From positions 1 through 64,000 of the IMG/VR virus record IMGVR_UViG_3300036046_000003: DNA of 64,000 nt. One strand, written 5' to 3'. Under the pieces are notes generated by a model that was given only the letters and a program-made list of their open reading frames with translations, ran no database searches and was not told the origin of the DNA. The translations under genes were made by a program, and so were the position numbers. Position 1 is the stretch's first letter, and each line of letters begins with the position of its first letter. Origin of the DNA: a virus. This document shows, in pieces, positions 24,645 to 53,707 of the stretch.

Positions 24645-25319
24645 TTCTGCACTAATTGCAGAACCTCACTGCGCGACACGCCCCTTCGCAAGTGCGAAGT
24701 AGAAGTACCCTACTCAGGTATACCCTTCTGGTTCTATCGCCGCTCCTGGGGCTTCCCAGGCCCCTTGTGGGGTCGCCTCGCCGGAACCCTTTACTTCCCG
24801 AAGTGGGCGTTGGAGGGAAAGAAGGTTCGGAATAAAGGGAACTGTACTAGCCTACACAACCCGAAGGGTCAGAGCGTGTCTTTGTGTTCTTCGGGCTTGT
24901 GTTGGGTAAACGAGGAGGGTTGTGAAAAGTATCACAACCCTATATATTTTCCGAGTTTCCCGCTTTGGGCCGCACAGGCCGACACTAGGCAGGGTAGGGG
25001 CAACACGTACAACTACGCGGGGCGCTAGCCGCGCCCCTGCACCCCCAGGCCCGTCTCGCTCCGCTCGACGGAAACGCTAACGCGTTTTCTAGAGGAGACA
25101 TACTCCTACAACCCCACCTCCCTAAAGGCCCTCTTAGTATACCAGTTAAAAACAAGTTAGTGGGACAAAAAGAGGGGTGAAAGAGGGCAGTTTGGGGTAC
25201 TTGTTTCGGTTTTGCCGCGTTCCAAAGCCAAACACACATTACAAAACTGTAATCGATTTTCTCATAAATCTCTTGACAAGGTTTTGGCGGAACGGGGCAA
25301 CGTTCTGCATTTACTGCAC
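24645..25319 (+). repeat. Dispersed structured non-coding element, copy A
   Basis: 24885-25281 matches 31940-32336 with one substitution seen; TGCA-N5-TGCA boxes at both ends. Confidence 0.95.
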
Positions 25320-25337
25320 ATCTCTTGAAAGGAGACA

Positions 25338-25811
25338 GTGATGAGCGACGCTACGCCAGGTCAGTCGGCTACGTTGGTGCCTTTGTTTGACCGAGTAACG
25401 ATTGGCGATGAGACGTATACAATCGGAACGTTCAGTCTGGCTCGTACCATTCGAGCCTTCGCGCTTTTGACGCAGCTGGCCGAAATTGCCGGACTAGGCA
25501 AAGAGCGGGACGAGCAGCAGCCGTCGTCCGTTTTCGGGGGAATTATTTCCGCGCTACCGACGCTGGTAAAGACGGGCACACCGGCCCTGTACAGTCTCCT
25601 GGGTCTGATTATCACACCAAACGTGCGCCTCCGAAAAATGGAGGAGGACGGGGAGGACGTAGACGAGTATTTGCTGCGCCAGGGGCGACGGCTTTCTCAC
25701 GAGGCCAACACGCAGCAGTTCGTTCAGCTCTTGACGGCTGCGGTGAAGGCGATTGGCGTTGACACCGTTTTGGGGGAAGTAAGCGGCCTCCTAGCCGCCG
25801 TGAAGAGCTAG
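25338..25811 (+). CDS. Tail assembly chaperone (gpG-like)
   Basis: Between the tube and tape-measure genes; slippery site near the 3' end. Confidence 0.75.
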   Translation: MMSDATPGQSATLVPLFDRVTIGDETYTIGTFSLARTIRAFALLTQLAEIAGLGKERDEQQPSSVFGGIISALPTLVKTGTPALYSLLGLIITPNVRLRKMEEDGEDVDEYLLRQGRRLSHEANTQQFVQLLTAAVKAIGVDTVLGEVSGLLAAVKS

Positions 25812-26101
25812 GAAGCGGCGGCCCGCTCGTGTGGTATCGCCTGATAGAGGTTTTAGCCGACGCATATGGGTGGACGTTTGATTATTGTCTCCACCGTTTG
25901 TCGTTTGCACAGGCAATTACCATACTGGACGCTCGCCACGAGCGGTTACGGCGCGCAAATGAGGCCGCCGAGCAAAGACAGCGCGAAAGCCAGCTAGACG
26001 GCTGGGAAGACCCGGCGAAGTACGCGGTTGACGAAGACGACGTGGAGAGCCTACCAACGCGGGACGATATACGCGCTACGTTGGCCGGACTGTTTGGCTA
26101 G
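25772..26101 (+). CDS. Tail assembly chaperone extension (gpGT-like) made by a -1 frameshift
   Basis: GGGGGAA at 25772-25778; the -1 frame is open from there into ORF 25829-26101 (YGWT.DY....LS..Q). Confidence 0.75.
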   Translation, partial: GGSKRPPSRREELGSGGPLVWYRLIEVLADAYGWTFDYCLHRLSFAQAITILDARHERLRRANEAAEQRQRESQLDGWEDPAKYAVDEDDVESLPTRDDIRATLAGLFG

Positions 26102-26104
26102 AAC

Positions 26105-26146
26105 AAAAAAAGCCCCTGCCCTGAAAAGGGGCGGGGGCTTCTTTTT
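26105..26146. terminator. Terminator-like hairpin before the tape-measure gene
   Basis: A run, GCCCCTGCCC...GGGCGGGGGC, T run. Confidence 0.6.
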
Positions 26147-26163
26147 ATTTTCGGGAGGCGCAG

Positions 26164-29100
26164 GTGGCGGAAGAGCTTTTTGAGGGCCGGGCGGAAGTTA
26201 ATATTGCCCCGTTTGTGGCAAACCTTGAACAAATGGAGCGTCGGGCGCAGGCCGCAGCCGCCGCGATTAAGGCGCAGTTTGACGGGCTTGCGGCGGATAT
26301 AAGGAAGTCATTTCAGTCCGTCGCCGCTGGCGGCGTTCCTATTCAGCTGACAACGAACCAGGTGGCCGCGCAGGTACGAACGGTGCGTCAGGGAGTGCAG
26401 GATCAGGTAAAAGCACTCCAACAGTTGTCCGCCATTGAAAAGGCAACTCGACAGAAAGCCGCGCAGGACGCGCTTACTATTGAGCGGGGCCGTTCCCGCG
26501 ACCTGCTGGCCCAACTGCGCTACGCTCAGGGAGAAGAAGTTAAGGTAGTGCAGGCCGCCGCCGCTGCCCGAGCAAACGCACTGCGGGCCGCAGTTGCCGA
26601 GCAGCGGCGCGTAGAAGCGGAGGCCCGCACACAGGCAGCCGCGCAGCTTCGGGCCGCCTCCGGTTTTGAAGGGGCGGGGGAGGGGGCGAATGCTGCCGGG
26701 GCAAGGGCACAGGCGCTTGCGTCTATCCAGGTCGCCGAAGAAAGTGTGCAGAAGCGTTCGTCGCTAGAACGCGAGCTAACGGAGGTAGCCCGTGCTGAGA
26801 ATGCGGCGAGAACAAAGCTTGCGGAAGACGGCGCTCGGCGTATGGCGGAGGCCCAGCAAGGCGCTATCCGCAGTTTTAATTTGTCCGGGCGGGCGGGGCT
26901 GGATCAGTTTGCAACTGCTTTCGAGGAGACCATTCGACAAGTAGAAGATCGTTGGAACAGCGTCTTTCGAGCGGGTACGCAAATTCAGTCGGTCGGTCAG
27001 GGATTTGTGCAGTTTGCGAGCAACGTAAAAAACGCGGGAATGGCGTTGACCGACAACGCGGGTGACTTTGACTTCTGGATTGCCCGTACAAAAGCGGCGA
27101 TGCAATCCGCAGGCAGTAACGAGGCCGTTACGCAAATTGAAGAATTGCAAAGCCGAACGCTAGACCTGGGTCGGGAACTAGGCTCCCTTGATCCAGAAGA
27201 ACTAGCTACGGGTTGGTTTACGTACCAGGCGGCGCTTGGCGAAACGATCAACACTACGGAGGACTTGGAAGAAACGCAAAACGCGCTCCGTGTAATGCTA
27301 CAGGCCGGAATTATTTCCGACAGTACCCCGGAGACCGTTATGCGCGGCGTCGCGGGTGTGTTGGCGTCGTACCGGCTCGAAACGGAGGACAGCGCGTATG
27401 CGACCTCCGTACTGATGAACGTTACGCAGCGGACGCAAGCTGAGTTTATCGACTTGTTGGAAGCGTATAAAATGATCGGCTCGCAGGGGCCGGTTATGAA
27501 CGGGTCTATTGCTGAAACGTCTGCATTGTTGGCAGCAATGGCAACGCAGAACATTAAGGGGTCGCAGGCTGGACGGTCGCTAAATATGGTGTATTCCCGC
27601 CTCAATGATATGACGCGGGAAGGTGCCGAAGTTCTAGACGAAATTCTTGTTTCTTCGCAGGGGCTTCAAGGCTCCTGGGAAGACATTGCGTTTGCGGGCG
27701 GGCCGTTTATTGGACTTTTGGGTGAAATTGACGAACAGGGAAACGTCGTCAAAGAAGGGTTCATCGAAAAATTCGTAGAACCCTTTATGCAGCTTCCCAA
27801 AGAGATCCGAGACGTAGAGCTTGCGCAGGCAATTGGTAAAATTTTCCCCGAGAACGCGGCACGCGGTTTTATTCCGCTGGTTCAATCCTACGCGGACGGG
27901 CTGGACGCGGTACGATCCGGCGCTGACGGGGCGCAAAACGAACTGCTCACACTGTACGCGGAGTTTCAGGACGGCAACGAACAAGCCCGTTTGTTTGACG
28001 CGCAGTGGAAAACAATCTTTGAAAGCCTGCGCCAACAGATAGACCGGGCGACGTATGGGTTTCGACAGGGCTTTACGCGCATCGGTGTGCTGACTGCCGA
28101 AGTTTTTATCCCGGTAATCGGCTGGGTAGGCGGTTTGGTAGAGCGGCTGGCCCTGTTTGCGGAGAACAACCCAACCGTCGCAAAGTCGGTGTTGGCCGTT
28201 GTCGGTACTTTGGCGGCGCTTGCGGCGGTGATTGGGCCGCTGCTTATCGCCGTAGGCTTGATGCTTACGGGTATTTCGGGTTTCTCAGTTGCCGCTGCTT
28301 CGCTGGCCGGGTTAAAAGGGGCATTTGTAGGACTGCTCACTACGCTGGGCGTTACGGCACCGCCGCTGGGGATTTTGCTGGGGTTGCTCGCCGCAGTCGC
28401 GTTGGGCGCGTATCTCCTCACGAACAACGTGAGTGGTCTGCGCGACGCGCTGGGCGGCTTGGGCGGGTCGCTGGGTACGCTGCTGGGCGGCCTGGGCGAG
28501 TTTGGTATCGGTCTGGTGGAGGCGCTGGAAGGCGCGTTAACCGGGTCTGAGGAGAAGTTCCAAGAGGGTATGCGCCGCGCAGCAGAAGGCGGTATTGCTG
28601 TTCTTGTGCTTTTCCCCCAGCGCGTAGGGGAGGTATTTGCACAGTTTCAGCAGGACTTCTACGTTTGGGGATTTAACTTAATGATCAGCCTGCGGGACGG
28701 CATTTACGCCGCCGGGGAATATTTGTTGCAGGCGGCGTCCGATATTGCCGCCGGTATTGCGCAGTATTTCGAGAGTTTTTCACCCCCGAAAGTTGGCCCC
28801 CTGCGCGGGATCTATGTTTGGGGGCGCAATCTTATTCGTACCTTTATCGAGGGTATGAGCGCCGCTGATATTACGGCAGTGTCGGATATTGCGGGTCGTA
28901 TCGGGGACGCGCTTCAACTGACCAAAGATTTTGGCGGCGGCGAAGAAGGATTGGACGTACTAGGCCTTTCCAACGAAGCCAATGAACTGGCGGCGCAAAT
29001 GGTAGGTATCCTACAGCGTGGCGGGCGCGTAAGCGATACGTTCTTTGAAGGACTTCGCAGCGGCCTAGGCGCGTGGTACGAGGATATACAGAATATCCTG

Positions 29101-31641
29101 TTTGCGTACCAAGATATGTACCTGGCGGAGCGGGCGCTTACCGCCGAGCAGAAGAAGCTTGACCTGCTAAAGAAGCAGAGGGAGGAGCTTGAAAAGCAAT
29201 ACGGGCTGCGAGAAGCCGCCTTTAGCGCCGAGCTGGGTAATTCTAACGACTTTAGCCTAGAAGCTAATCGTGACGCAATGGTAGACCCCACCACCGAAGC
29301 GGGGAAAGCCAAAATCGCGCAAATGCGTGCGTCATTGTCTACGGAAGACTTTCAGGCGTGGATTGCGTTTCAACAGCAACTTTGGAACGCGCAGAAGGAA
29401 GCAGACGACCGCAGTTTGGCCGTTCAGGAAGAAGCGGCAGACGCAGCGGTTGCGGCGCTACAGCAGCAACTCGACTTGGTGAGGGCACAGTACGAGTATT
29501 ACGTCAAGATTTACGAGTACGCAAAGGGGCTGCTGTCGGCCAACAAAGAGGAAGAAAAAGCCGGGGGCGGCGGCGGAGGTGGCGGAGCAAAGAAAGACGT
29601 ACTTGGCGACCCTGCCGCGCTAGAGGAAGCTCGCAGGCGGGTTAGAGAAATTGTCGGCGCTGACGGCGCTATCTATGACGAAGCGCAACTAGCTGACAAC
29701 CTGGGGGGCGACCTTCCCGCGCTGGGTGGAGCCGACCGTCAGGAAGAGACAGAACAGGACAGAATTGACCGACTTGACGCGGAGAACCGTCGCCGCCGCG
29801 CCAAGTACGAAACAGACCTCATTAACGCCACGTCGGAAGAGGAGCGCGACGCGCTAAAGAAGCAACAGGACGCCTGGGACGCTGCCTACAAAGAGGAGAA
29901 GGCGCGATTGCAAGAGCGCCTTGGGCTAACCTCGGATATTACGGAAGCGGCTGACCAACAGGCTGAGCTATCCAGTAGCGAACGTATTCAGGCGGCCCGT
30001 GCCGAAGCGGAGAAGGTAATCCGCGAAGAAATGGGAGGCCAGCTCGAAACGGCGGGCGACCTAAAGAGCGAGGAGCGCGAGCTTCAAGACCTTCGCAATA
30101 TCGGCGACCGGAAGCGGTTAGAGTTTGAGAAGCGCCTGCGCGAGGCAAAGGGCGACGAAGAAGCTACGCGACGTATTAAGGAGGAGCAGCAAGCCTGGGA
30201 AGAGGCGTATAAAGCGGCGCTACAACTGCAAGAGGAGCGCGTAGAAGCCCTGCGCCGAGTAGAGCAGGAGAAGAAAGAGGCGGCAGCAGAAGCGGCAAAA
30301 GCTTCCAAGGGCGGCGGCTACGGTATCCCCGACCGCGACGACTTCCCCGGATATGTGCCTCCAACGCAGCGCGATCCAGATACAGACGATACAGACGGTC
30401 TGTATGGCCCGCCCACAGCCGAACAAGCGGGGTATCGTCCGCCAAACGAAGCCACTAAACTACTGGACGACTTTAACCGCGCACTTGACTTCTTAGGAAG
30501 CACAAGCGTAACCAGCAAAGAGAAAGTAGAAGAATTAGATCGGGCGGTAGCTGAGTTCTTTGGCTGGGCGGATACGAAGGGCGATTTTGATTGGAAAAAG
30601 GTACTTGGGCTTATTGAACTAGAAAACGCAGCAATCGGGCTAGGCGGCAAACTACGCGGGCTGTGGCAATCTATTTCAGAAGGTATTGGGGGCGCGCTAC
30701 TTGCGCTCGACAACTTCAATGTTGAGACCTGGGCAATGGCGCGAACCTGGGCGCAGGGCGTGTGGGAGAGGCTACAGTCCGGCTGGACGGAGTTTGTTAA
30801 CAACCCCGCTCCGACGCTATGGGCGGCTTTCTGGACGGCGCTTGGGCTTGGCTGGGTCGCCAGTGTGGTCGGCCCCGCGCCCGAACTGTGGGGAACCTTC
30901 TGGACGGCGGTACAGGAGGGCTGGACGCGGCTGGTAGCAACCCCCGCCCCCGAACTATGGGCAACGTTCTGGACGGCGCTTGGCCTCGGCTGGGTCGCCA
31001 ATGTGGTTACGCCGACACCCGACCTTTGGACGACCTTCTGGACGGCGCTTGGGCTTGGCTGGGTAACAAACGTCATTACACCGACACCCGAACTTTGGTC
31101 GAACTTTTGGCCCAACCTGAAAAAAGGATGGGACGAATTCGTAGCCAAACCAGGCGAGACGCTAGCAAAAGCGTTTGCCCCGCTAGTATCCGCGTTTGAC
31201 GGGCTGCGCACTAAAATCGACGGCTTTGTCGGCTGGCTCAAAAGCCTCAGCTTTGGCGGCAATAAAAAGGAGGACGGCGGTCGCGTCGGTGGCTCCTACA
31301 AAACGGGGCTTGCGTCCGTCCCCTACGACGGCTTCATCGCAGAACTGCATCAAGCGGAGCGCGTCCTAACCGCCGAGGAGGCGGTTAGGTATAACCAACT
31401 CGAAAGCGCCGGACTACTCGGCGCGCTCCCTCAGATCGGGGCTGCCGTATCTGCCGCCGTACAGGGTGCCCAATCCCTAATGGGAGAAGTCCTAGCGCGG
31501 GCCGCCAACGCGGGTTCCTCTATGTACTCCAACACTACCAATAGTTCCCGCGTAACCAACCTGTCTATCGCCAGAGTAGACGCGAACGATCCTACCGCCG
31601 GGCGCGCCTTGCTGGAAAAGCTGGCGTTCCACGGGCAATAG
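26164..31641 (+). CDS. Tape measure protein
   Basis: 1825 aa, helical; TP901-type core (IKGSQAGRSL), central hydrophobic segments, 22-aa Trp-periodic repeats, C-terminal GL..VPYDGF.AELH..ERVLTA. Confidence 0.92.
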   Translation: MAEELFEGRAEVNIAPFVANLEQMERRAQAAAAAIKAQFDGLAADIRKSFQSVAAGGVPIQLTTNQVAAQVRTVRQGVQDQVKALQQLSAIEKATRQKAAQDALTIERGRSRDLLAQLRYAQGEEVKVVQAAAAARANALRAAVAEQRRVEAEARTQAAAQLRAASGFEGAGEGANAAGARAQALASIQVAEESVQKRSSLERELTEVARAENAARTKLAEDGARRMAEAQQGAIRSFNLSGRAGLDQFATAFEETIRQVEDRWNSVFRAGTQIQSVGQGFVQFASNVKNAGMALTDNAGDFDFWIARTKAAMQSAGSNEAVTQIEELQSRTLDLGRELGSLDPEELATGWFTYQAALGETINTTEDLEETQNALRVMLQAGIISDSTPETVMRGVAGVLASYRLETEDSAYATSVLMNVTQRTQAEFIDLLEAYKMIGSQGPVMNGSIAETSALLAAMATQNIKGSQAGRSLNMVYSRLNDMTREGAEVLDEILVSSQGLQGSWEDIAFAGGPFIGLLGEIDEQGNVVKEGFIEKFVEPFMQLPKEIRDVELAQAIGKIFPENAARGFIPLVQSYADGLDAVRSGADGAQNELLTLYAEFQDGNEQARLFDAQWKTIFESLRQQIDRATYGFRQGFTRIGVLTAEVFIPVIGWVGGLVERLALFAENNPTVAKSVLAVVGTLAALAAVIGPLLIAVGLMLTGISGFSVAAASLAGLKGAFVGLLTTLGVTAPPLGILLGLLAAVALGAYLLTNNVSGLRDALGGLGGSLGTLLGGLGEFGIGLVEALEGALTGSEEKFQEGMRRAAEGGIAVLVLFPQRVGEVFAQFQQDFYVWGFNLMISLRDGIYAAGEYLLQAASDIAAGIAQYFESFSPPKVGPLRGIYVWGRNLIRTFIEGMSAADITAVSDIAGRIGDALQLTKDFGGGEEGLDVLGLSNEANELAAQMVGILQRGGRVSDTFFEGLRSGLGAWYEDIQNILFAYQDMYLAERALTAEQKKLDLLKKQREELEKQYGLREAAFSAELGNSNDFSLEANRDAMVDPTTEAGKAKIAQMRASLSTEDFQAWIAFQQQLWNAQKEADDRSLAVQEEAADAAVAALQQQLDLVRAQYEYYVKIYEYAKGLLSANKEEEKAGGGGGGGGAKKDVLGDPAALEEARRRVREIVGADGAIYDEAQLADNLGGDLPALGGADRQEETEQDRIDRLDAENRRRRAKYETDLINATSEEERDALKKQQDAWDAAYKEEKARLQERLGLTSDITEAADQQAELSSSERIQAARAEAEKVIREEMGGQLETAGDLKSEERELQDLRNIGDRKRLEFEKRLREAKGDEEATRRIKEEQQAWEEAYKAALQLQEERVEALRRVEQEKKEAAAEAAKASKGGGYGIPDRDDFPGYVPPTQRDPDTDDTDGLYGPPTAEQAGYRPPNEATKLLDDFNRALDFLGSTSVTSKEKVEELDRAVAEFFGWADTKGDFDWKKVLGLIELENAAIGLGGKLRGLWQSISEGIGGALLALDNFNVETWAMARTWAQGVWERLQSGWTEFVNNPAPTLWAAFWTALGLGWVASVVGPAPELWGTFWTAVQEGWTRLVATPAPELWATFWTALGLGWVANVVTPTPDLWTTFWTALGLGWVTNVITPTPELWSNFWPNLKKGWDEFVAKPGETLAKAFAPLVSAFDGLRTKIDGFVGWLKSLSFGGNKKEDGGRVGGSYKTGLASVPYDGFIAELHQAERVLTAEEAVRYNQLESAGLLGALPQIGAAVSAAVQGAQSLMGEVLARAANAGSSMYSNTTNSSRVTNLSIARVDANDPTAGRALLEKLAFHGQ

Positions 31642-31673
31642 AAACAGGGCCGTTTTCTTTTGAGAACGGCCCT

Positions 31674-32336
31674 TCTCCTAGAATGACCTACAAGGGGGCT
31701 GGGAAGCTCCAGGAGCGACGATAGAACCAAAAGGGTACTCTGAGTAGGGTACGTCTACTTCGCAACTGCGGAAAGACGCGCCGCTTCTTCCAGAGTTCTG
31801 CATTAACTGCACAAGGCTGTGAAAAGTTTCACAATCCAAATAGTTGAACAGAGAGGATCTTTAGGAGAGAGTTCTCGGAAGAGCGGGAGCTGGAATAGCC
31901 TACACAAGCCCGATAGGGCGAGTGGGGATCTTGTCCTCTTGTTCTTCGGGCTTGTGTTGGGTAAACGAGGAGGGTTGTGAAAAGTATCACAACCCTATAT
32001 ATTTTCCGAGTTTCCCGCTTTGGGCCGCACAGGCCGACACTAGGCAGGGTAGGGGCAACACGTACAACTACGCGGGGCGCTAGCCGCGCCCCTGCACCCC
32101 CAGGCCCGTCTCGCTCCGCTCGACGGAAACGCTAACGCGTTTTCTAGAGGAGACATACTCCTACAACCCCACCTCCCTAAAGGCCCTCTTAGTATACCAG
32201 TTAAAAACAAGTTAGTGGGACAAAAAGAGGGGTGAAAGAGGGCAGTTTGGGGTACTTGTTTCGGTTTTACCGCGTTCCAAAGCCAAACACACATTACAAA
32301 ACTGTAATCGATTTTCTCATAAATCTCTTGACAAGG
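31674..32336 (+). repeat. Dispersed structured non-coding element, copy B
   Basis: Direct repeat of the copy A core and of nt 1-126; reverse complement of 53047-53707. Confidence 0.95.
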
Positions 32337-32346
32337 CGAGGAGCCA

Positions 32347-34359: not shown

Positions 34360-34367
34360 GAGGTCGA

Positions 34368-35399: not shown

Positions 35400-35462
35400 T
35401 AGCAGTGCGTTTAGTGCAGAAGGCCCACTCCGTTCGGGGTGGGCTTTTTCTTTGGAATACTT

Positions 35463-38072
35463 ATGAGTTCTATTTCGCAGCTAGACCTTGTACTTTTAGG
35501 CCGACGAGGACTAACGGCTCGCCTGGGTGGGGTTGAACGCGCCATTCGTGACCTTTCGTTGGGCGTCGCACAAGAGGCAGTAGGCGCGGTTACGGGGGTG
35601 CGCCCTAATCTCCTTTCAAACGGCTCCTTCGAGTTCTACAATCGAGGCGAAACGAAACCAAACGAGTGGGCCGCGAGTGGTACGGTGTCTGTAGCGTCGG
35701 GGACGCTGGGCGCTGACGGTAGCGTGGTAGTGTTGCTTTCAGCGGGGGCCTCTATTAGTCAGTCTGTAGACGGGGGTCAACCGCAGAACGTTGGCGCGGG
35801 TACGCTGTCCCTGGCGGTTCGGGCCACCGCACCTGCGACAATTACGTTGGCGGTTAACCACAGCGCCGCCACAAGCGGGCCAATCATTCGGTTGGGGCTT
35901 GACGGGGTAGAGGTCGAAACAAACGAACATCCGGGCGACGGTACTTGGTATCGTTTCTTTCGGCAGTATCTCTTAACCGCCGCTGGTGCGGCTTCTGTGT
36001 CGGTGGGCTGCTCTGCCGGTTCTGTTGAAGCTGATGCCGTTAAATATGAGCGAGAAGACGGTACGGGTACGTTTATCGAACCCACGGCGTTTGTGGGAGG
36101 CGATTGGGGGGCTGCCGTCCAGCTACGCACCCTCAAAGCTGAGAATATTATTTCAGGCCAACTCACGGTTGGCGGGGCGGACAGTAACAACCCACGAATT
36201 AGCGTCCTTAACGGGGACAACGCCGAGATTGTGACGATAGGAGACCCTGCAAGTGGGTTTCTTGGTATTGAGGTTAAGGACGCGGGGGGTATGCGGGTGA
36301 GTGGCAGCGGAGACGTGGCCGTTGTCGGCGGGGGGCGTATTTACGCGGGTATGCCCGCCGGGGGGCGGACTGAGCTGGCCGCCGCCGGGTTGGCGGGCTA
36401 CAACGCGGCGAACGAGAAACAGGCGGAGCTGCAAAGCGCTACTGGTAAACTGCGCATTCTTGGGGTCGGCGGTCTGTCGGTAGAGAATGGGGCGTCCGTC
36501 GAAATTAAAGGCGGCGGCCATTTGCTTGTGGGTACGCCCGACGCGCAGCGTACCGAGGTTCGTAATTACGGGGTTGTTGGATACAACAACGACAACGAAG
36601 TTATTTTTGCGCTGAATGAGGCCGGTGTCGTCAATGGGGTCAACGTAGACGACGGCGATGTATTGATCGGCAACGCAGGCAACAATTACGCGCTTTGGGA
36701 TAATTCTGCGGGCGAGCTTACTATTGTCGGAACAGTAATCGCGGGCGAAGGTAACGTCGAAATAGGTACGGCGGGTGTTACCTTGCTGAGTAGCGGCGTT
36801 AACTACAACGCACGAAACGCCGTGACCTGGGTAACTGACCTTTCCGAACCAAATACGGACTTTCCCGTAGCTGTGGTTTTTGGTGGAAGGCAAGAGGTTA
36901 GCCAGACAAATCCACGGGTACGCAAAATTCTTGACCTGTACAGCGGGTCAATAAACGACGTGTTCTTCTCCCGCCCCGCCGGTAGCCCACAGGAAGACGG
37001 AAAGCTTACCTGTATCGCCATTGGCACAAAAGACGGCGGACAAGCCAGTGCGTTTTACGGCGCGTTTGCTGGTACTGCCGCAGAAATGATATTCCATTCA
37101 GTTGCGCGGCGTATTGAAATTGGCGGATCGGGCCTTTGTCGGAAAAACTCGACAAACACAAACCCGGCTTTTTTGCAGTGGGAAGCCGGGTTCGTAGAGT
37201 TGGGCGGAGAGGGCCATTCGGCGGGGGTGCGTACCCGTGGAACCCTCGACGTAAGAAAGCTGAACGCTGCGGGTGGTAGTAACGTTCAACTCGAAGGGCG
37301 CACCGCTCTCACCGACATAAACGACGGCTTTTTGCGGGTCAATCACGGCGAGCAGTACAGTGAAGGTGTTGCGGTGTCGGGCCGCTTACGCGCATTCGGC
37401 TGGCTCAGTGTCGGCAATGACGCGCTCAACTTCACACCCACCGGGTCTACCTGGGCTACAGGTGGGGCTACCTTACTCCTGAACGGCCTGGATACTACCT
37501 CGATTGTTTTCCACGACGCCAATAACCGCGTAGACGCGATTGTGGCGGGCGGGGGACTTCTGCGTATTGGGCCGGACATTGGCTTTGGCCCTGCGAATGT
37601 GGAGTTCTCAGGAACTACGGCATTCGGACGCGCCCCTGTTTCAAACGTCCGGGCGGTTATGTTTGCGACAACGAATGACAGTAACGGACATAGCCTGTTT
37701 TGCGCGAACAACGGCTGGACGCAAAACCACTTGTATATTCGCGGAGACGGCTTGCCCTGGGTCAATCAAGCCTGGGTTGTCGGTTCCGACGAACGCCTGA
37801 AAGAAGACATAGCCGACGTACCAAACGCCCTAGACCGTCTTCAAGGCGTTCGGCCCCGCTCCTACTACCTTCGAGCCGACGAGGCCCGTCAACGAAGGCG
37901 TCATTACGGCGTAGTCGCTCAGGAGTTGGTAGAGGTACTACCTGAACTGGTGTCAGAAGGGCAGGACGGCACACTGGCGGTGGCGTATGAAGAGCTGATC
38001 CCCCTGCTTGTGGGGGCCGTAAAAGAGTTGTCAGCGCGGGTTACAGCCCTTGAAGCGCGCCTGCGCTCGTAA
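35463..38072 (+). CDS. Tail fibre/spike with C-terminal intramolecular chaperone (peptidase S74)
   Basis: NLL.NGSFE carbohydrate-binding-like start; SDERLKEDI, YGVVAQE, PELV, V.YE.LIP.LV.A.KEL. Confidence 0.88.
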   Translation: MSSISQLDLVLLGRRGLTARLGGVERAIRDLSLGVAQEAVGAVTGVRPNLLSNGSFEFYNRGETKPNEWAASGTVSVASGTLGADGSVVVLLSAGASISQSVDGGQPQNVGAGTLSLAVRATAPATITLAVNHSAATSGPIIRLGLDGVEVETNEHPGDGTWYRFFRQYLLTAAGAASVSVGCSAGSVEADAVKYEREDGTGTFIEPTAFVGGDWGAAVQLRTLKAENIISGQLTVGGADSNNPRISVLNGDNAEIVTIGDPASGFLGIEVKDAGGMRVSGSGDVAVVGGGRIYAGMPAGGRTELAAAGLAGYNAANEKQAELQSATGKLRILGVGGLSVENGASVEIKGGGHLLVGTPDAQRTEVRNYGVVGYNNDNEVIFALNEAGVVNGVNVDDGDVLIGNAGNNYALWDNSAGELTIVGTVIAGEGNVEIGTAGVTLLSSGVNYNARNAVTWVTDLSEPNTDFPVAVVFGGRQEVSQTNPRVRKILDLYSGSINDVFFSRPAGSPQEDGKLTCIAIGTKDGGQASAFYGAFAGTAAEMIFHSVARRIEIGGSGLCRKNSTNTNPAFLQWEAGFVELGGEGHSAGVRTRGTLDVRKLNAAGGSNVQLEGRTALTDINDGFLRVNHGEQYSEGVAVSGRLRAFGWLSVGNDALNFTPTGSTWATGGATLLLNGLDTTSIVFHDANNRVDAIVAGGGLLRIGPDIGFGPANVEFSGTTAFGRAPVSNVRAVMFATTNDSNGHSLFCANNGWTQNHLYIRGDGLPWVNQAWVVGSDERLKEDIADVPNALDRLQGVRPRSYYLRADEARQRRRHYGVVAQELVEVLPELVSEGQDGTLAVAYEELIPLLVGAVKELSARVTALEARLRS

Positions 38073-38082
38073 GGAAAACCAA

Positions 38083-40518: not shown

Positions 40519-40520
40519 AT

Positions 40521-42089: not shown

Positions 42090-42126
42090 TCGGCGACCTC
42101 TTTTGAAGTATTTTCGTGGCAGAGAG

Positions 42127-43798: not shown

Positions 43799-44111
43799 TA
43801 CTGCCTCCTAGAAGCGGGCGGCGCTGTAGTGCCCGGTGGATAGACGACCTTCCGAGACCGACCAAAGCGGAGAGCTGGCTGATTGTGTAGGGCTGAGCTG
43901 AGGCGAGGTCAGCGGCAGTTAGATTAATGTCGGCCACTTCTTCGCGCCGTACTGGTTCGTCTAGGCCGAAGTCAGCCGCCATTAACAGTAACGCCTCGGC
44001 CAAGAGTGGACTTACCGACCGCTGCTTCTCTGCGTCCCGACAAGCGGCGGGTTGGCGAGCACCGGCGGCAACGACATAATTCAACAGCCGGTCAAGCGGG
44101 CCTGGGTTCAC
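43791..44111 (-). CDS. Small protein with C-terminal HTH
   Basis: TISQLSALVGLGRSSIHRAL. Confidence 0.6.
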   Translation of the reverse strand: MNPGPLDRLLNYVVAAGARQPAACRDAEKQRSVSPLLAEALLLMAADFGLDEPVRREEVADINLTAADLASAQPYTISQLSALVGLGRSSIHRALQRRPLLGGSNA

Positions 44112-45502: not shown

Positions 45503-45622
45503 CGGCCCCGCGCAAACTGCGCAAAGCCGTGCCCGTTCCGTATCGTTGGCCGGATAGTGCTTCCTGCAAAGCCACTATACGCACCTGCTAAGCGTACGTC
45601 TACTTGTGCAGTTAATGCACAA

Positions 45623-46480: not shown

Positions 46481-46486
46481 AGGCGC

Positions 46487-47008: not shown

Positions 47009-47265
47009 TCGGCATTCTCCTCGTAAACGAGTAACCATTCGGGAATATCTCGAATAGCTTGACTTAGTACGTCCGTACTCACCGAAGCAGCCTCCTCGTA
47101 AGGAAGCAAGCTCGCGGTTTCAATTACTGTTTGCAGACCCGCCAGAAAACGAACCCGTTCCGTCGCCGTCAGAACGCCCCTGCTTTGCCTCGCCGACAGT
47201 AGCCGGTCGAATTGCGCCACCAAACCAGCGGCCTCTACTCGTAGTCTGCGCTGCGGCCAACGCAT
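47005..47265 (-). CDS. Hypothetical protein
   Basis: Overlap-coupled to the next gene. Confidence 0.45.
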   Translation of the reverse strand: MRWPQRRLRVEAAGLVAQFDRLLSARQSRGVLTATERVRFLAGLQTVIETASLLPYEEAASVSTDVLSQAIRDIPEWLLVYEENAE

Positions 47266-47329
47266 TTACTGCAAATCTTTCTAGTCCGGGCCAGCCGGAC
47301 AGTTAGGCCACTTCACCGGGTCGAACGCT

Positions 47330-48364: not shown

Positions 48365-48448
48365 TATTGCTGTCCCGACAAATAAAAAGAGCGGCGAACA
48401 AGCCCTTCAAACCGGCTTGTTCGCCGTACCCGTTTGTTTACTGGTACT

Positions 48449-48664
48449 CTACCGTTGCGAAGCGTCTTTGTCTACCGAGCCGCCTAGTTCCCGCTCTCGC
48501 GCAGCCTGCTTATCGCCGAGGATCTTCCAAAGCGCCCGCTCGGCCTGTACGCGGTCGGTGGTGTAGGCAATCGGTCGATTGTTAATCAGCAAAACATAGA
48601 TGGTAGGCTCACCGGGGCGGTTCGGCGGCTCGGTAGTAATGTATCCGTACAGCAGTTCCGCCAT
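48449..48664 (-). CDS. Hypothetical protein
   Basis: GGAGG RBS. Confidence 0.5.
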   Translation of the reverse strand: MAELLYGYITTEPPNRPGEPTIYVLLINNRPIAYTTDRVQAERALWKILGDKQAARERELGGSVDKDASQR

Positions 48665-48731
48665 ACAGCCCTCCAAAGAGACGTAAAAGCCGCCCCTCTT
48701 TGGAAGGGGCGGCTTTGAAAAGGCGGTCAGG

Positions 48732-48923
48732 TTATGCGGCTTCGCGGAAATACTCCCCGTTCATCAGCTCGTATACAAGCTCGTCCAGGGCAATCTCCGC
48801 TTCCCGAAACGTGCGCGTAAAGCCGACCAACTCACCGTCCAAGTACATAGCAAAGTCACGGGTCTCAGGATCGTACACAATCGACTTCTCGTACAGAGGC
48901 GTCCAGGTTTTTGTAGGCTCCAA
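48732..48923 (-). CDS. Small acidic protein resembling a conserved Chloroflexales hypothetical protein
   Basis: IVYD.ETRDFAMYLDGELVGF.RT..EAE..LD.LV.EL recalled from memory, not verified. Confidence 0.55.
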   Translation of the reverse strand: MEPTKTWTPLYEKSIVYDPETRDFAMYLDGELVGFTRTFREAEIALDELVYELMNGEYFREAA

Positions 48924-48935
48924 AAAGACCCCCTT

Positions 48936-49130
48936 CTATACTTCCCAACCCCAATTTAGGATACTAGACAACGCCTCTTCTGCAATAATGTCTCGGGCTT
49001 CGTCGTCCAGGTCGTTCCATTCAGCCCAGGACAGCCCTGTATCAAACAGCGTTTCAACCCGGCTACCTGTACGGTTAATAATCACGTAAACCGTAATAAA
49101 CACGGTCTCGTTTTCGTCTGGATCCATCAA
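48936..49130 (-). CDS. Small acidic phage protein
   Basis: GS.VE..F......EW..L pattern. Confidence 0.55.
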   Translation of the reverse strand: MMDPDENETVFITVYVIINRTGSRVETLFDTGLSWAEWNDLDDEARDIIAEEALSSILNWGWEV

Positions 49131-49465
49131 ACCCCCTCCTCGTCTACGCGGCGCAGACTGTCAACGCTCGAAAAGCCGTTAGGGTAGCGGCGGCGCAGCT
49201 TATCAAGGTTGCCTTGCATAACCTCCCCCAACGTTGCACCAAGCGCGGCTGCCGCCAGAGAGCAGTACCACAGAACGTCACCCAACTCTTTATGAAGGGC
49301 CGCTTCGTCAAGCACGTGCCCGTGGAAGCGGCTCTTTTTAAGCGCTTCGATAAATTCTCCGGCCTCACCCGCAAGCCCCATCGCCGCGTTTAACAGTCGC
49401 TCGTCTCGCCCCGAAAGAGTAGCTGCCGTCCGAAGCGCTTGCCGCTGATACTCGTTTGCGTCCAC
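49127..49465 (-). CDS. MazG-like nucleotide pyrophosphohydrolase
   Basis: NEYQ..A.RT, GLAGEAGE, ELGDVLWY, N..KL..RYP.GF. Confidence 0.9.
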   Translation of the reverse strand: MDANEYQRQALRTAATLSGRDERLLNAAMGLAGEAGEFIEALKKSRFHGHVLDEAALHKELGDVLWYCSLAAAALGATLGEVMQGNLDKLRRRYPNGFSSVDSLRRVDEEGV

Positions 49466-49609
49466 TGTAATGTTTCCTTCACTATTGAGGATTGCCCCGC
49501 TACCCCTTCTTCTTAGCCTGCTCCTGTACCCGGCGCGTGGCCTCAGCTGCGCTAATCCCTTCCCGTTTTGCCAGGGCCGCGATCTTAGCGGCCAGTTCTT
49601 TTAGTGCGC

Positions 49610-49822
49610 TCACTTAGGTTCCTTCTCAATTGACTTACGTAAACGGCGAATCTGGCTTTGAAGTTGTTTTTTACAGCCGCCAAAACAGACGTACTCCGCC
49701 GCGCCCACTCGATTACTGACGCTTCGCATAAGGGTTACTTCCCCGGCACGGCTACCGCAGAGGGAGCATTGCTGCTTCCGTTTTTCTACGCTAACGAGGT
49801 CTCGTACTGTTCGTCCTCGCAT
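49610..49822 (-). CDS. Small Zn-finger protein
   Basis: CSLC...CFGGC. Confidence 0.45.
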   Translation of the reverse strand: MRGRTVRDLVSVEKRKQQCSLCGSRAGEVTLMRSVSNRVGAAEYVCFGGCKKQLQSQIRRLRKSIEKEPK

Positions 49823-50454
49823 TGAACCACCTTCTTTCGGCTCGGGCGCGACCAATGAAGCGTCGTAAGTACGGCTGGCCCCGCGTAACCGTTCTCAAAT
49901 ACAAACAAGCCGTAATCGGTACTGTCGGTATTGCCGTTCTCGGTAAAACTAGGCCTCGGCGTAATTACGGCCAGCTCGCGGAGCGGAGCCATACTCCAAA
50001 GACCGCCGTCCGGTTTGTTTCGCTCTTGCGAGGCACGAAAGCCAAGAGGCAGCAGAAAAGCGGCCCGCCCACCGGGGGTCAGTAGACGCAGCGCCAATCG
50101 TACAAAGGCCTCGGCGGAGCTGTAGGGTGGGTTAGCAAGGATAAGTCCGTAGCGCGTTGTAAAGTCGGCGGCAAGTACGTCCTCTGTCCACCAGCCGTCA
50201 TAATGCGTTGGTTTTGGCGAAGGCCGAAGTTCGTACCCGTCTAACCAGGCGCTCCAATAAATTGCCCTCGCCGCCCTTCCCCAAACCCCGTTGCCTGCGC
50301 CCAGGTCAAGTACGTTTCGCGCCCGAAGGCCTGACAGCGGCGCGGCTTCCCCGGTCAGGGTCGCTGCTCTGCCTACACAAGCCAGCGCTAACGCAAACGG
50401 AGTAGGATAGTGGTCACGCTCTTTGCGCGGTTCTTTGTTGGCTGGCTTATTCAT
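49786..50454 (-). CDS. Amino (N6-adenine-type) DNA methyltransferase
   Basis: D.YPTP, LDLGAGNG (SAM binding), NPPY catalytic motif, RPSF. Confidence 0.88.
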   Translation of the reverse strand: MNKPANKEPRKERDHYPTPFALALACVGRAATLTGEAAPLSGLRARNVLDLGAGNGVWGRAARAIYWSAWLDGYELRPSPKPTHYDGWWTEDVLAADFTTRYGLILANPPYSSAEAFVRLALRLLTPGGRAAFLLPLGFRASQERNKPDGGLWSMAPLRELAVITPRPSFTENGNTDSTDYGLFVFENGYAGPAVLTTLHWSRPSRKKVVQCEDEQYETSLA

Positions 50455-50687
50455 TCAGTCTCTTTCCCACTGCCAAAAACAACCCAAAAGAACGCCAGCA
50501 ACGGAAGGGACAGACCCCAGGCGGGGTGTACTACCCCGGCAATCGATAGCGCCGCCACTACTAGCAAAACCGACAAAAGCGTAGGAAAACTAAGAGCGCG
50601 CCACAGCGGCGGTTCCTCGGCGCTGTGTTTTGTTTCTAGCTCTCGATAGCGCTGAAATAGTTCCCGTTCGTGCTCAGTCAGTTTCAT
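50451..50687 (-). CDS. Small membrane protein
   Basis: Two hydrophobic segments. Confidence 0.55.
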   Translation of the reverse strand: MKLTEHERELFQRYRELETKHSAEEPPLWRALSFPTLLSVLLVVAALSIAGVVHPAWGLSLPLLAFFWVVFGSGKETE

Positions 50688-50693
50688 TTACCC

Positions 50694-51188
50694 TCACTTT
50701 CGATTGGCCTTCAATTGAAGTGCTAACGCACCCGCGTACTCGCGCTTAGAATATGCGGGCCGTGTGTAGTCGAAACCGAACAAGCGCCGTACTGCTTCCC
50801 GCTCGTATTGGCGTGCGTCCCGTTCGTCGGGGGCGTTTTCGTAGCCCCAACGCCGCACCGGCCCCCGCTTCTCAGGAACGTACACTGACCCGTTCCAATA
50901 CCAACCCCAGCGCCGATGCGACGCGCAGTACCGATAGTCGAGTACCCCCGTCACTTTTTGCCACAAGTGACGGCACTCGTGAGCAAGTGTCGAAAGTAGT
51001 TCGTCCTCCGAATAAGCGGTCGCCAGCCGGATCGTGTAGTCGCCTCCCCTCCAAGAAAACTCACCGCAACTATTTCTAGACCCGGGAACAGTTCGCCCCG
51101 GATAGAACTCCCAAGAAAGCGAAACCCCGGATAAACCAAGGTCTGCCAATACTTTATTGCGGTTGTCCTCTCCTAAAATGCCGTGCAT
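50694..51188 (-). CDS. Zincin-like metallopeptidase
   Basis: TLAHECRH.WQ and Y...P.E.DAR. Confidence 0.75.
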   Translation of the reverse strand: MHGILGEDNRNKVLADLGLSGVSLSWEFYPGRTVPGSRNSCGEFSWRGGDYTIRLATAYSEDELLSTLAHECRHLWQKVTGVLDYRYCASHRRWGWYWNGSVYVPEKRGPVRRWGYENAPDERDARQYEREAVRRLFGFDYTRPAYSKREYAGALALQLKANRK

Positions 51189-51351
51189 TGCTCGCCTCGC
51201 TAAATAAAATTGCCGCAGAGTTCCGTTTTATACAAACCTGTGCGCCCACGAGCTTGTTACGGTAACGATCCGCTCTCTGCGGGATTTACCGACTGTTCAC
51301 CAGACACGCGCCTCGCGTAAAGCGCTTCCGTGTCGAACGGCTGGCCGGTAG

Positions 51352-51465
51352 TGGTCGGAAGACTAGGATTTGAACCTAGACGACGCTCACCCATATACGC
51401 CCCTGGGCTGTTGGCGTCACCCCTTCCAAGCGTGGGGCGCGGCTGCCAGATTTCGCCACCTTCCG
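51352..51465 (-). tRNA. Atypical tRNA-Pro(TGG)-like gene with encoded CCA
   Basis: Acceptor CGGAAGG/TCTTCCG-A-CCA; T arm CTAGG-TTCAAAT-CCTAG; D arm with GG; 10-nt anticodon loop; ~40-nt variable arm. Confidence 0.7.
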
Positions 51466-51501
51466 TAGCCAGGGGCCGGTCAAAACGGCCCCCGTAGCGC
51501 G

Positions 51502-52053
51502 TTACTGGCCTTGCAGCTCCGCCAAACGGCTCTGCGCTTCGGCCAGCTCCCGTTCTCGGCGCGCCACTACTTGCCGCGCCGCGATTACTTCCCGCGTTTC
51601 ATTACCCATTGCCCGGTCGTAATCCCGCAGCGCCGCTTCAACTTCGCCAGCGGTCAATCCTACCTCGCGACGCACTTCCGAAATTGCGGCTGCGATAGAC
51701 ACAACTTCGTTTCGCAAAAAGGCGCGACAAACCTCCTCTTGCTCCAAAAGCGCCCCAACAAACTCTTGGGCCGCAGCGTAGGAAAGTCCCCGGCAGCGCC
51801 GCGCCGCCGCGATTACCGGACTTTCAGCCGCCGTAACGCCGCTCGTCTTTTGCAACCAGTCGTAGGCCGTTACAATGGCGGCACCCTCCAACACTGAAAG
51901 ATACCTGTCTTCCAGCGCCGTTTGCAATTTTGACCTATCCGCCCCGGACTTCACCGCCAGAAGGTCGGTAAGCTCGCGGACGGCCCCCTCGTCCTCGTAA
52001 CTACTCGTATCGACACCCCCGGCAATCCAACGCCGTACCGCGTCTATACCCAT
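51502..52053 (-). CDS. Hypothetical helical protein
   Basis: ORF with RBS. Confidence 0.6.
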   Translation of the reverse strand: MGIDAVRRWIAGGVDTSSYEDEGAVRELTDLLAVKSGADRSKLQTALEDRYLSVLEGAAIVTAYDWLQKTSGVTAAESPVIAAARRCRGLSYAAAQEFVGALLEQEEVCRAFLRNEVVSIAAAISEVRREVGLTAGEVEAALRDYDRAMGNETREVIAARQVVARRERELAEAQSRLAELQGQ

Positions 52054-52111
52054 TGGAGTTTCCTGTGTCTGAGGGGCCGCTGTTACGCGGCCCCGCTATT
52101 CTTCGTCGGCG

Positions 52112-52948
52112 CTACGCCTTCGGGGCTGCCTCTGCCTGCGCCTTCGCCTGTAGATAGAACTTGCGGCCAAACGGCGGGGCAAAGAACTGGCCGGGGAACT
52201 CGGAGAACACATACACCGCCGCCGTCCCCAGCTTGTCGGCCTGCATAGTCGCCCACTTCTCGTTCGACACCCACTCCTCGTCAGCCTGCCCCCGGTTCCG
52301 CGCCCAACCGTTAATCTGCTCACCAGTTACCGAACACAACACCAGCGGGTTGTCGGTGGCCTCGCGGGGGTCTGCTGCGCGCTCGGCAGGAACCCACTTT
52401 GGAAGCAGTTCGTCCTCGGGAACGCGGCTGATTACCTTATCAAGCCAGTTCTTCGTTCCGTTTCCGTCCAGAAGGGCGTAATACTGCGGCTGGTCTACTT
52501 CAAGCTGATTGACAATATTCACGAGGTCGTTCAGTTGCGCGTCCGTCAGGTCAGCGCCGTCATTCAGCAGCCGACAGAGAAGCAAATAGGCATTAGATAC
52601 CTTCTGACCCTCCTTCGGGCGACCCAGGTACTTTGGTCGGTTCACGTCAATCCAGAAGAAGCGACCGTGACCCTTATCCTCGTTCTTATCGGGCCGCACA
52701 TACGCGAACTTAAACGAAAACTTAGGAACCCACACAACGTCCGGGTCGCTATCGACCAGGGTACGGGTCTCGTAGGACTTTTCCGTCTTCTCCGTCACTG
52801 ACAAAAACTGATAGACCCCCTGCCCCAGACGCAGATAAGGCCGCTGAATACGAGGCCGCGTCTGAGTAGCCTGTGTGTTGATTGCGTCTCCTGCGAGTGC
52901 CATTCGTTCAATCTCCTTTTGTTGGCTTTCTTGCCGCGTCGCCCTCAC
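52112..52948 (-). CDS. Hypothetical protein, possibly ssDNA-binding
   Basis: Aromatic beta-rich N-terminal half; first gene downstream of repeat copy C. Confidence 0.5.
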   Translation of the reverse strand: MRATRQESQQKEIERMALAGDAINTQATQTRPRIQRPYLRLGQGVYQFLSVTEKTEKSYETRTLVDSDPDVVWVPKFSFKFAYVRPDKNEDKGHGRFFWIDVNRPKYLGRPKEGQKVSNAYLLLCRLLNDGADLTDAQLNDLVNIVNQLEVDQPQYYALLDGNGTKNWLDKVISRVPEDELLPKWVPAERAADPREATDNPLVLCSVTGEQINGWARNRGQADEEWVSNEKWATMQADKLGTAAVYVFSEFPGQFFAPPFGRKFYLQAKAQAEAAPKA

Positions 52949-53009
52949 TTGTGGCGACCGCCGCAGTGTAGCGCGCCCCTCCGCAAGCGTCTACTAGTAC
53001 GCCGCACTC

Positions 53010-53707
53010 GTGCAGTAAATGCAGAACTTTTCTCCGTTCCGCCAAAACCTTGTCAAGAGATTTATGAGAAAATAGATTACAGTTTTGTAATGTGTATTTG
53101 GCTTTGGAACGCGGTAAAACCGAAATAGGTACCCCGAACTACCTGCTTCTACCCCTCTTTTTGTCCCATTAACTTGTTTTTAACTGGTATACTAAGAGGG
53201 CCTTTAGGGAGGTGGGGTTGTAGGAGTGCGTCTCCTCTAGAAAACGCGTTAGCGTTTCCGTCGAGCGGAGCGAGACGGGCCTGGGGGTGCAGGGGCGCGG
53301 CTAGCGCCCCGCGTAGTTGTACGTGTTGCCCCTACCCTGCCTAGTGTCGGCCTGTGCGGCCCAAAGCGGGAACTTCGGAAAATATATAGGGTTGTGAAAA
53401 GTATCACAACCCTCCTCGTGTACCCAACACAAGCCCGAAGAACACAAAGACCGCTCTAACCCTACGGGTTGTGTAGGCTATTCCAGTTCCCTCTTCTTCC
53501 TATAGCTCTCTCTCTTAAAGAACCTTCTCTGTTCAAGTATATGGATTGTGAAACTTTTCACAGCCTTGTGCAGTTAATGCAGAACTCGGGAAGAAGCGGC
53601 GCAGTTTTTCGCAGTTGCGAAGTAGAAGTACCCTACTCAGGTATACCCTTCTGGTTCTATCGTCGCACCTGGAGCTTCCCAGGCCCCTTGTAGGTCATTC
53701 TAGGAGA
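53010..53707 (-). repeat. Dispersed structured non-coding element, copy C (inverted)
   Basis: Reverse complement of copy B, with segments that match copy A better. Confidence 0.95.

Follow-up and report, generated by a model that had tools for sequence, protein, structure and literature searches.

Tailed phages pack their genes tightly, and a genome in which 4.6% of the length goes to a single non-coding design in four copies, two flanking the tape-measure gene, raises the question of what these elements are. They occur in IMG/VR virus record IMGVR_UViG_3300036046_000003 (72,427 bp), of which bases 1-64000 are referred to as the window; coordinates are those of the window, and places beyond it are given as record positions. 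An initial annotation had described the family as dispersed, mosaic and hairpin-rich, and had suggested that its members are multiple origins, recombination hubs or a multicopy structured RNA. The account that we favour, at somewhat less than an even chance, is that the elements are duplicated cassettes of terminator, operator, promoter and leader which head transcription units, resembling oversized versions of the promoter-plus-stem-loop cassettes (PeSLs) of T4. The findings indicate regulation and not a new mechanism.

Four copies of a non-coding element

All four copies were recovered by sequence comparison at the places where the initial annotation had put them, and they form a paralogous non-coding family. 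Each is 0.7-1 kb long and rich in hairpins; the common core accounts for ~400-460 nt, and the four copies together come to 3,320 nt. The open reading frames (ORFs) of copy A are truncated or absent in copy C, and no frame is open through all copies of the L module described below, which agrees with the earlier view that there is no credible ORF. With the 127-nt overlap of its ends the record corresponds to a circular unit of 72,300 bp, and the fourth copy lies across this junction. The copies are as follows:

24645-25337, plus strand: copy A, the whole gap that separates gene 24090-24644 from the putative tail chaperone gene (25338-25811)
31642-32346, plus strand: copy B, the whole gap from the tape-measure stop (31641) to the Dit-like start (32347)
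52949-53794, minus strand: copy C, between the minus-strand ORFan genes 53795-54688 and 52112-52948
1-615, plus strand: right part of copy D, ending at gene 616-1098; from base 128 to 615 the core is present as a diverged paralogue
record 71840-72300: left part of copy D, outside the window, across the record junction

The cores of A and B are near-identical, with one difference in 370 aligned core columns (267/267 plus 102/103), and 24872-25171 agrees with 31927-32226 at 98% over 300 nt. These two copies are direct repeats around the putative chaperone and tape-measure genes (spacing 7055 nt), and B and C are inverted repeats 20.7 kb apart, both as had been reported. The B and C cores constitute 404-nt inverted repeats of 94% identity with 20,711 nt between the core arms, and the longer alignment of B 31674-32336 with C 53707-53048 is 91% identical over 668 nt. 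A and C are likewise inverted, their arms (24878-25319 and 53010-53451) being 95% complementary over 442 nt. In a four-way alignment the C core is 97%, then 89-90% identical to A and B.

Copy D equals B and then diverges, as had been observed: window bases 1-127 match B 31830-31956 at 100%, and divergence sets in at base 128. With the record end included, the match covers 279 nt at 98.2% (record 72149-72427 against B 31678-31956). For the diverged part, semi-global alignment of D 140-615 with the C core gave a score of 140, compared with 99.8 +/- 10.3 for 300 dinucleotide shuffles (maximum 139.5; z 3.9; 0/300 as high) and 92 for the reverse-complement control. Five short islands, in like order in D 140-615 and the core, were read by eye from the alignments.

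Anatomy of the element

Taken in the orientation of the flanking genes, the element consists of an upstream hairpin, a module L, a near-palindrome P, a first palindrome (pal1), a hairpin (H1), a second palindrome (pal2) and ~350 nt of further hairpins; in A and C a second P stands before the start codon. The parts were located as follows:

53745-53786, no strand assigned: hairpin at the upstream edge of C, strong and terminator-like in both directions
24681-24771, minus strand: L of A, inverted relative to the core; a direct match to 53608-53694 although the cores are inverted
31678-31775, plus strand: L of B, from sequence alignment
53608-53703, minus strand: L of C, from sequence match
24645-24665, plus strand: P-like palindrome that immediately follows the upstream stop codon, at the left edge of A
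25303-25323, plus strand: gene-proximal P of A, ending 14 nt before the chaperone GTG start (25338)
31796-31816, plus strand: P of B, 0 mismatches to the consensus
53564-53584, minus strand: internal P of C, 0 mismatches to the consensus
53006-53026, minus strand: gene-proximal P of C, by motif match
31818-31833, plus strand: pal1 of B, TGTGA-N6-TCACA
24851-24906, plus strand: H1 of A, interior of A/C type; -28.6 kcal/mol sense, -20.3 kcal/mol antisense
31899-31961, plus strand: H1 of B, interior of B/D type; -40.5 kcal/mol sense, -26.3 kcal/mol antisense
24916-24941, plus strand: pal2 of A, a 10-bp hairpin with TGTGA-N6-TCACA, terminator-like and also sigma-70-like (TTGTGA-17-TATATT)
31971-31996, plus strand: pal2 of B, a hairpin at which promoter-like and terminator-like calls overlap
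53388-53413, minus strand: pal2 of C, a hairpin with a flipped 6-nt loop

In B the upstream hairpin, as seen in the sequence, is GC-rich and follows directly on the tape-measure stop, and this copy ends in a ribosome-binding site. L is a non-coding module of ~100 nt with five copies in the record, one of them a solo copy in D (record 71851-71951); only that of A is inverted, the other four being co-oriented with their own cores. H1, a hairpin of 55-65 nt, has a conserved outer stem and two alternative interiors, one shared by A and C and the other by B and D. It folds at -22.3 kcal/mol (sense) against -15.3 kcal/mol (antisense) in C, and lies at ~70-132 in D. In all three copies folded it pairs through G-U on the sense strand only, an advantage of 7-14 kcal/mol for that strand.

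The terminator-like call at pal2 rests on a 10-bp stem followed by a T-rich tail in A, B and C. The same hairpin overlaps the -35 box and spacer of a sigma-70-like site which matches at 9/12 positions and has a like position in these three copies (shuffle mean 0.3 per region); no sigma-70-like promoter site was found in D.

Mosaic structure

The mosaic pattern attributed to the family is borne out by the four-way alignment, in which partner copies change at sharp breakpoints of identity. From L to pal1, B is 95% identical to D and 93% to C; in the H1 interior the values are 100% for B/D, 88% for A/C and 45% for A/B; and in the 3' tail, which B does not have, A and C are 82% identical. Such sharp switches of partner show exchange or gene conversion between the copies. 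In A, a block of ~130 nt comprising L and a palindrome is inverted relative to the core. The 6-nt pal2 loop of C is the exact reverse complement of the A/B loop with the stems unchanged, a small hairpin-mediated inversion; small flips of this kind occur in other genomes.

A palindrome associated with gene starts

P has the form TT(C/G)TGCA-N5-TGCACAA(GG). Its core, TGCA-N-T-N-A-N-TGCA, is present at 10 sites in the window against 0.05 expected, and 0/100 shuffles reached 10. The whole record has 12 sites, of which 11 are outside long ORFs and one (40405) is inside an ORF. Six P-core sites lie outside the elements (3103, 11559, 40405, 45607, 61099 and record 72115), among them the following:

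3100-3120, plus strand: P; the family-A DNA polymerase gene (3209) begins 88 nt downstream
11559-11571, plus strand: P core, 20 nt upstream of the terminase large-subunit gene (11592)
45602-45622, minus strand: P; the DnaB-like helicase gene (start 45502) begins ~100 nt downstream
61096-61116, plus strand: P, in the gap where the minus-strand tyrosine recombinase gene (start 61086) and the rightward tail-fibre block diverge

Degenerate copies occur at 14881, before the gene at 14920, and at record 68552, before the leftward gene at ~68510; there is also an occurrence at 35421. Where P has asymmetric flanks, the orientation of the motif follows local transcription. P thus looks like a genome-wide signal tied to gene starts, operator- or promoter-associated, and in the big elements it appears to be accompanied by a good deal of additional sequence. 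The CRP-like palindrome TGTGA-N6-TCACA has five sites in the window (0.02 expected), and all six sites in the record are inside the elements.

Unit boundaries and the related prophage

All four elements occupy the entire intergenic gap and share the orientation of the flanking genes. The transcription units that they would head are the putative chaperone/tape-measure genes (A), the Dit/baseplate genes (B), the minus-strand early genes (C) and the rightward early genes at the main divergent region (D). Genes run rightward from ~0.6 to 40.9 kb and then mostly leftward, and the region of D is the largest non-coding stretch, ~1.5 kb from the last long minus-strand ORF (end 71406) to 616. Because the copies are co-oriented with transcription and P recurs upstream of other genes, the context points to operon-boundary control regions.

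Cultured relatives are remote only, the closest capsid among them being 29% identical, while a protein collection contained 46 capsid homologues at 45-78% identity. The relatives compared were a prophage in a metagenome-assembled genome (MAG) and an 18-kb IMG/VR fragment without the tail region. The prophage, in the 11.26-Mb MAG of an "uncultured Chloroflexia bacterium", is the one syntenic relative; its capsid is 67% identical, and it is collinear with the phage from terminase to baseplate as well as in the replication genes. Since this prophage sits in a Chloroflexia MAG, the phage host is likely a member of the Chloroflexota. A capsid profile found no further prophages in 401 genomes sampled from the phylum, the Dit alignment had no match in IMG/VR, and no close relatives emerged when the capsid protein and the product of the gene upstream of A were each used in a single-protein scan. 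The cyanobacterial HIP1 signature GCGATCGC has 0 sites against 1.8 expected, a result that is uninformative on the host.

It had been stated that A and B interrupt a normally gap-free tail operon. They do lie between tail genes, but "gap-free" is an overstatement: the related prophage has a 75-nt non-coding gap at the position of A and, between the tape-measure and Dit genes, a 392-nt non-coding gap with a co-oriented terminator-like hairpin. Since the relative is non-coding at both tail junctions, these would be natural unit boundaries in the phage group. On this comparison the tail junctions are apparently old boundaries and the elements are specific to this lineage. The idea that B is the ancestral copy was dropped, the whole gap not being similar (z 0.17); its sole support is a 34-nt local match beside the Dit ribosome-binding site (score 25; shuffle mean 19.5, maximum 26).

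Homologues of the elements were not found by blastn among the INPHARED phage records. Exact-pattern scans of IMG/VR used three patterns, two of which had no match; the 18-nt P pattern gave nine single matches without DNA similarity to this genome, which were taken as chance, and three of these nine loci encode only a ~27%-identical capsid protein. One L pattern had a single match in metagenome contigs, with no other similarity and likewise ascribed to chance, and one had none in GTDB genome contigs. In the Chloroflexia MAG no match to the element was better than E = 1, and of 401 genomes sampled from the class of this MAG four had ~35-nt GC-rich matches (E ~5e-4 per genome), again regarded as fortuitous. 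An nhmmer profile of the four copies, run against a 101-kb prophage stretch and three other loci, gave nothing with E < 3.8.

Proposed duplicated control cassettes

If the elements are control cassettes, the hairpins at the upstream edge would stop or damp transcription from the preceding unit, one or more dimeric DNA-binding proteins would occupy P and the TGTGA-N6-TCACA palindromes, and transcription would start or restart inside the element, the best candidate being the promoter-like site that overlaps the pal2 hairpin. The transcript would then run through a structured leader, including H1, into the downstream gene. The copies would have arisen via duplication of intergenic DNA, and homologous exchange or gene conversion would keep them alike and give rise to the mosaic. 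As by-products, recombination of A with B could loop out the 7-kb chaperone/tape-measure segment, and that of B with C could invert ~21 kb.

Several points weigh against such cassettes. The related prophage is without any dispersed repeat family or P motif, and no homologue of the elements was detectable in it; the arrangement is therefore not needed by the phage group. B is without the gene-proximal P present in A and C. As to P itself, the possibility that it is a sigma-70 promoter or a terminator was rejected, our own reading of the sites showing no consistent -10/-35 arrangement and no T-run, and no sigma-factor or ParB domain that might read P was found in the phage. The 9/12 match of the sigma-70-like site is weak, and this consensus may not be that of the likely Chloroflexota host. 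The conserved core of ~450 nt far exceeds the needs of a promoter, operator and terminator, and most of it is without an assigned role. Finally, the better folding of H1 on the sense strand hints that part of the function is at the RNA level.

The closest parallel is with the PeSLs of T4-type phages. A PeSL is described as a promoter accompanied by a stem-loop, with possible overlap between this stem-loop and the -35/-10 boxes, and it reaches from the stop codon of one gene to the Shine-Dalgarno sequence of the next (PMC2839356). The elements are similarly intergenic cassettes between a stop codon and a ribosome-binding site: A fills 24645-25337 (stop 24644, start 25338) and B 31642-32346 (stop 31641, start 32347). 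A stem-loop that overlaps the promoter boxes is a further likeness, the stem-loop here being pal2 and the promoter a weakly matching candidate. PeSLs are recombination substrates that delete, swap or circularise the intervening genes (PMC2839356, PMC4122927), which for the present repeats is a possibility only. Copy C, like most PeSLs, is beside ORFans. The differences are of number, size and setting: there are four copies here, compared with ~50 PeSLs per genome; ~0.5-0.7 kb is conserved, with several palindromes, in place of a single promoter-plus-hairpin motif, roughly an order of magnitude larger; and A and B are inside a conserved tail module and not in the hyperplastic regions described for PeSLs, only C being flanked by ORFans. 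No sequence similarity between PeSLs and the elements was found, and none is expected; the promoter and terminator role of the elements is a predicted one.

The P motif, not the whole element, resembles another known system in having many dispersed, mostly intergenic sites oriented with transcription, namely the stoperators of mycobacteriophages. Stoperators are asymmetric sites bound by a monomeric repressor, whereas P is near-palindromic (7-5-7) and a putative binding site, and no repressor gene was identified in this phage. The likeness to the stoperators of Cluster A mycobacteriophages is that of a short motif of protein-binding type, dispersed, mostly intergenic and oriented with transcription (PMC9283540).

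We judge the elements to be of a known kind, repeated intergenic regulatory cassettes together with a dispersed operator-like palindrome, on an unusual scale and without homologues in the sequences searched. A limited literature search turned up no described large homogenised non-coding repeats bracketing a tape-measure gene, and one on Chloroflexota phages turned up no described regulatory signals. Were the elements control cassettes, whole regulatory regions would have been duplicated and homogenised within one phage genome, a larger-scale form of PeSL-type shuffling. P would be a concrete handle on transcription control in a phage group which probably infects Chloroflexota, and the repeats predict genome isomers and sub-genomic circles that should be visible in long reads.

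A possible function at the level of RNA

A possible though doubtful alternative is that the elements act as RNA: a multicopy structured leader or non-coding RNA, possibly with a processive antitermination signal acting in cis, a site at H1 for RNase III-type processing or stabilisation, or a small RNA of ~170-190 nt from P/pal1 to the pal2 terminator. The 514-nt core of A folds at -188.7 kcal/mol in the sense direction (z -4.45; antisense -179.4 kcal/mol, z -3.67), H1 is one continuous hairpin on the sense strand only, and its two interiors differ in sequence (A/B 45%) yet both lengthen the helix. Over the ~270 most conserved columns A equals B (267/267) and C differs at nine (258/267); these nine differences, read off the alignment, fall in four places, the pal2 loop, the loop of the GGAGA/CTCC hairpin and two short unpaired or edge positions. 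Every copy is, moreover, co-oriented with transcription. The put sites of HK022 and the nut sites of lambda are paralogous cis-elements that follow promoters, head more than one operon and act as RNA hairpins. They measure tens of nucleotides, up to about 70 nt. The elements resemble them in being paralogous, at operon heads and co-oriented with transcription, and differ in their ~450 nt and in having no sequence or Rfam match to them.

Other results speak against this alternative. Scanned with Rfam 15 at the gathering score, introns, ribozymes and large phage RNAs included, the 64-kb window had no matches; relaxed scans of A, B and both halves of D yielded weak microRNA-type hairpins and one small RNA (RsaE), all at E >= 0.089 and far short of the gathering scores, and no tRNA or tmRNA was found. 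When the copies were folded together with RNAalifold, the covariation term was near zero (0.2 and -0.19 kcal/mol) and many pairs were broken in D, the sequences being few, too similar and hardly independent. The H1 z-scores of the two strands are close (sense/antisense -4.86/-3.66, -6.79/-6.11 and -2.00/-2.02), and a flipped pal2 loop leaves an RNA stem and a DNA palindrome equally intact. With no Rfam match and no usable covariation, the conserved structured RNA of the initial annotation is not supported, and control cassettes with a transcribed leader remain our preferred reading.

Possible mobile DNA

It is unlikely, though worth setting out, that the elements, or the L module and P-bounded parts of them, are non-autonomous mobile DNA inserted at the junctions, either moved by a recombinase or akin to miniature inverted-repeat transposable elements (MITEs) and palindrome-associated transposable elements (PATEs). 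MITEs and PATEs of the IS200/IS605 type are non-coding, hairpin-rich and multicopy, as are the copies here. The initial annotation had found no terminal inverted repeats, which is correct for B (score 4, shuffle mean 5.8) and C (score 5, shuffle mean 6.1) but not for A, which is bounded by inverted copies of P (15/17; 0/500 shuffles as good); such repeats are thus present in one of three complete copies. Just outside the ends of A, at 24633 and 25324 (5 and 0 nt away), stands CTTGAA(G/A), a possible short flanking duplication, and by our own reading if the segment between these flanks were removed, a stop codon would overlap the start of the chaperone gene as TGATG. L occurs solo in D and inverted in A, the gap of the relative at the position of A is 75 nt only, and the genome encodes two recombinases, a serine recombinase (8002-9675) and an Xer-like enzyme (60202-61086).

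Against mobility, B and C have no comparable flanking repeats, the boundaries are not fixed from copy to copy, and a 6-nt flank match is not rare (rough chance estimate ~0.15). The claim that there is no transposase held, since Y1, TnpB and rve integrase domains were not found in the record; nor was a reverse transcriptase (RVT_1), such as would go with a retron or group II-type element. No copies were found in the other genomes searched. The elements do not fit the MITE type in terminal repeats, in an associated transposase or in copies elsewhere among the sequences searched. If P served as a site for a recombinase, its dozen copies, lying in both orientations, would be expected to scramble the genome.

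A related idea, which we regard as a long shot, is that the ~0.5-kb core represents a new class of cis-acting structured module, of RNA or DNA, with the P edges serving as cassette joints for insertion, inversion and exchange. This would amount to a cassette system for control regions instead of genes, and through the A/B and B/C copies tape-measure or baseplate segments could be excised or inverted in a programmed way.

Possible origins, recombination hubs and assembly artefacts

A role as replication origins or dedicated recombination hubs appears distinctly improbable. Promoter-primed origins of the R-loop type are exemplified by oriF and oriG of T4. D is at the minimum of the cumulative GC skew (the curve climbs as far as ~40 kb and declines beyond it) and in the largest non-coding region, the phage encodes its own polymerase, helicase and primase, and repeats of ~400-660 nt are in general good substrates for homologous recombination. 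The skew, however, follows gene orientation, so that it gives no origin location by itself; no iterons were seen in the core, where no search for DnaA-box or AT-rich unwinding signatures was made, and the 199-nt array at 58400-58996 is a better iteron-like candidate. Co-orientation with transcription and a place directly before start codons are not expected of origins, and the elements are absent from the related prophage. No test supported either the origin function or the hub role put forward earlier, and operon-boundary control regions are what the context indicates.

That the family is in part an assembly artefact, through repeat collapse that inflates the identity of A and B or a mis-join of D and the circle through the shared repeat, we hold to be highly improbable, since the flanks of each copy are unique and each has variants of its own, the genes around A and B are collinear with those of the related prophage, and the alternative join would give two circles of ~32 and 40 kb with the tape-measure gene split from Dit. 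The 127-nt terminal overlap (window 1-127, record 72301-72427) nonetheless repeats B 31830-31956 without a difference; D and B have an exact stretch of 158 nt in common, and it is precisely at the edge of this stretch that the record stops at either end; and 127 is a common largest k-mer of short-read assemblers. Since the overlap is within this shared stretch, the continuity of D and the circular closure rest on the repeat, and short-read repeat collapse could be behind part of the A/B identity. Collinearity with the relative and the copy-specific variants argue that the overall arrangement is right.

Other features of the genome

Proteins encoded in the window include a family-A DNA polymerase, a large serine recombinase, a T4-like terminase, a portal and a Gp23-type capsid protein, the tail proteins being a tape measure of 1,825 aa and the Dit-like protein. 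DnaB-like and primase-like proteins, an FtsK-like protein and an Xer-like tyrosine recombinase are also specified. The presence together of the serine recombinase (8002-9675), the Xer-like recombinase (60202-61086) and the FtsK-like protein (56461-58281) suggests a possible plasmid-like or dimer-resolving lifestyle.

Directly upstream of the FtsK-like gene (start 58281) is a non-coding region of ~600 nt (58282-58996) in which a 199-nt unit is repeated 2.5-3 times (58400-58996), the first two copies being 100% identical. The region at ~58.3-58.9 kb contains seven copies of the perfect palindrome AAGCCACTAGAGTGGCTT and is a candidate iteron, partition or operator array.

The first rightward gene after D (616-1098, plus strand) specifies a 160-aa protein with an I-HmuI NUMOD-like helix-turn-helix and a partial match to an HNH-endonuclease PHROG. 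The gene is next to the largest non-coding region, and its product may be a regulator that binds DNA or what remains of a homing endonuclease.

Repeats were also seen within genes. Positions 37398-37804 and 62318-62724 are alike over 203 nt at 80% and 73 nt at 74-77%, with equal spacing, and belong to an 877-aa tail gene (35439-38072) and a 524-aa tail-fibre gene with a Peptidase_S74 chaperone domain (61448-63022), respectively; this looks like a duplicated or exchanged fibre module. The ORF at 21144-22037 has collagen-like GGX-type nucleotide repeats at 21180-21517 with periods of 18, 45 and 63 nt. Near its C-terminal end (30773-31110) the tape-measure gene contains about four 69-nt (23-residue) repeats, and the tape-measure gene of the related prophage has a comparable repeat. 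Beyond the window are two pentapeptide-repeat proteins (record 64101-64628 and 66003-66884) whose repeat DNA is mutually similar, and a pentapeptide-repeat stretch is present in the related prophage as well.

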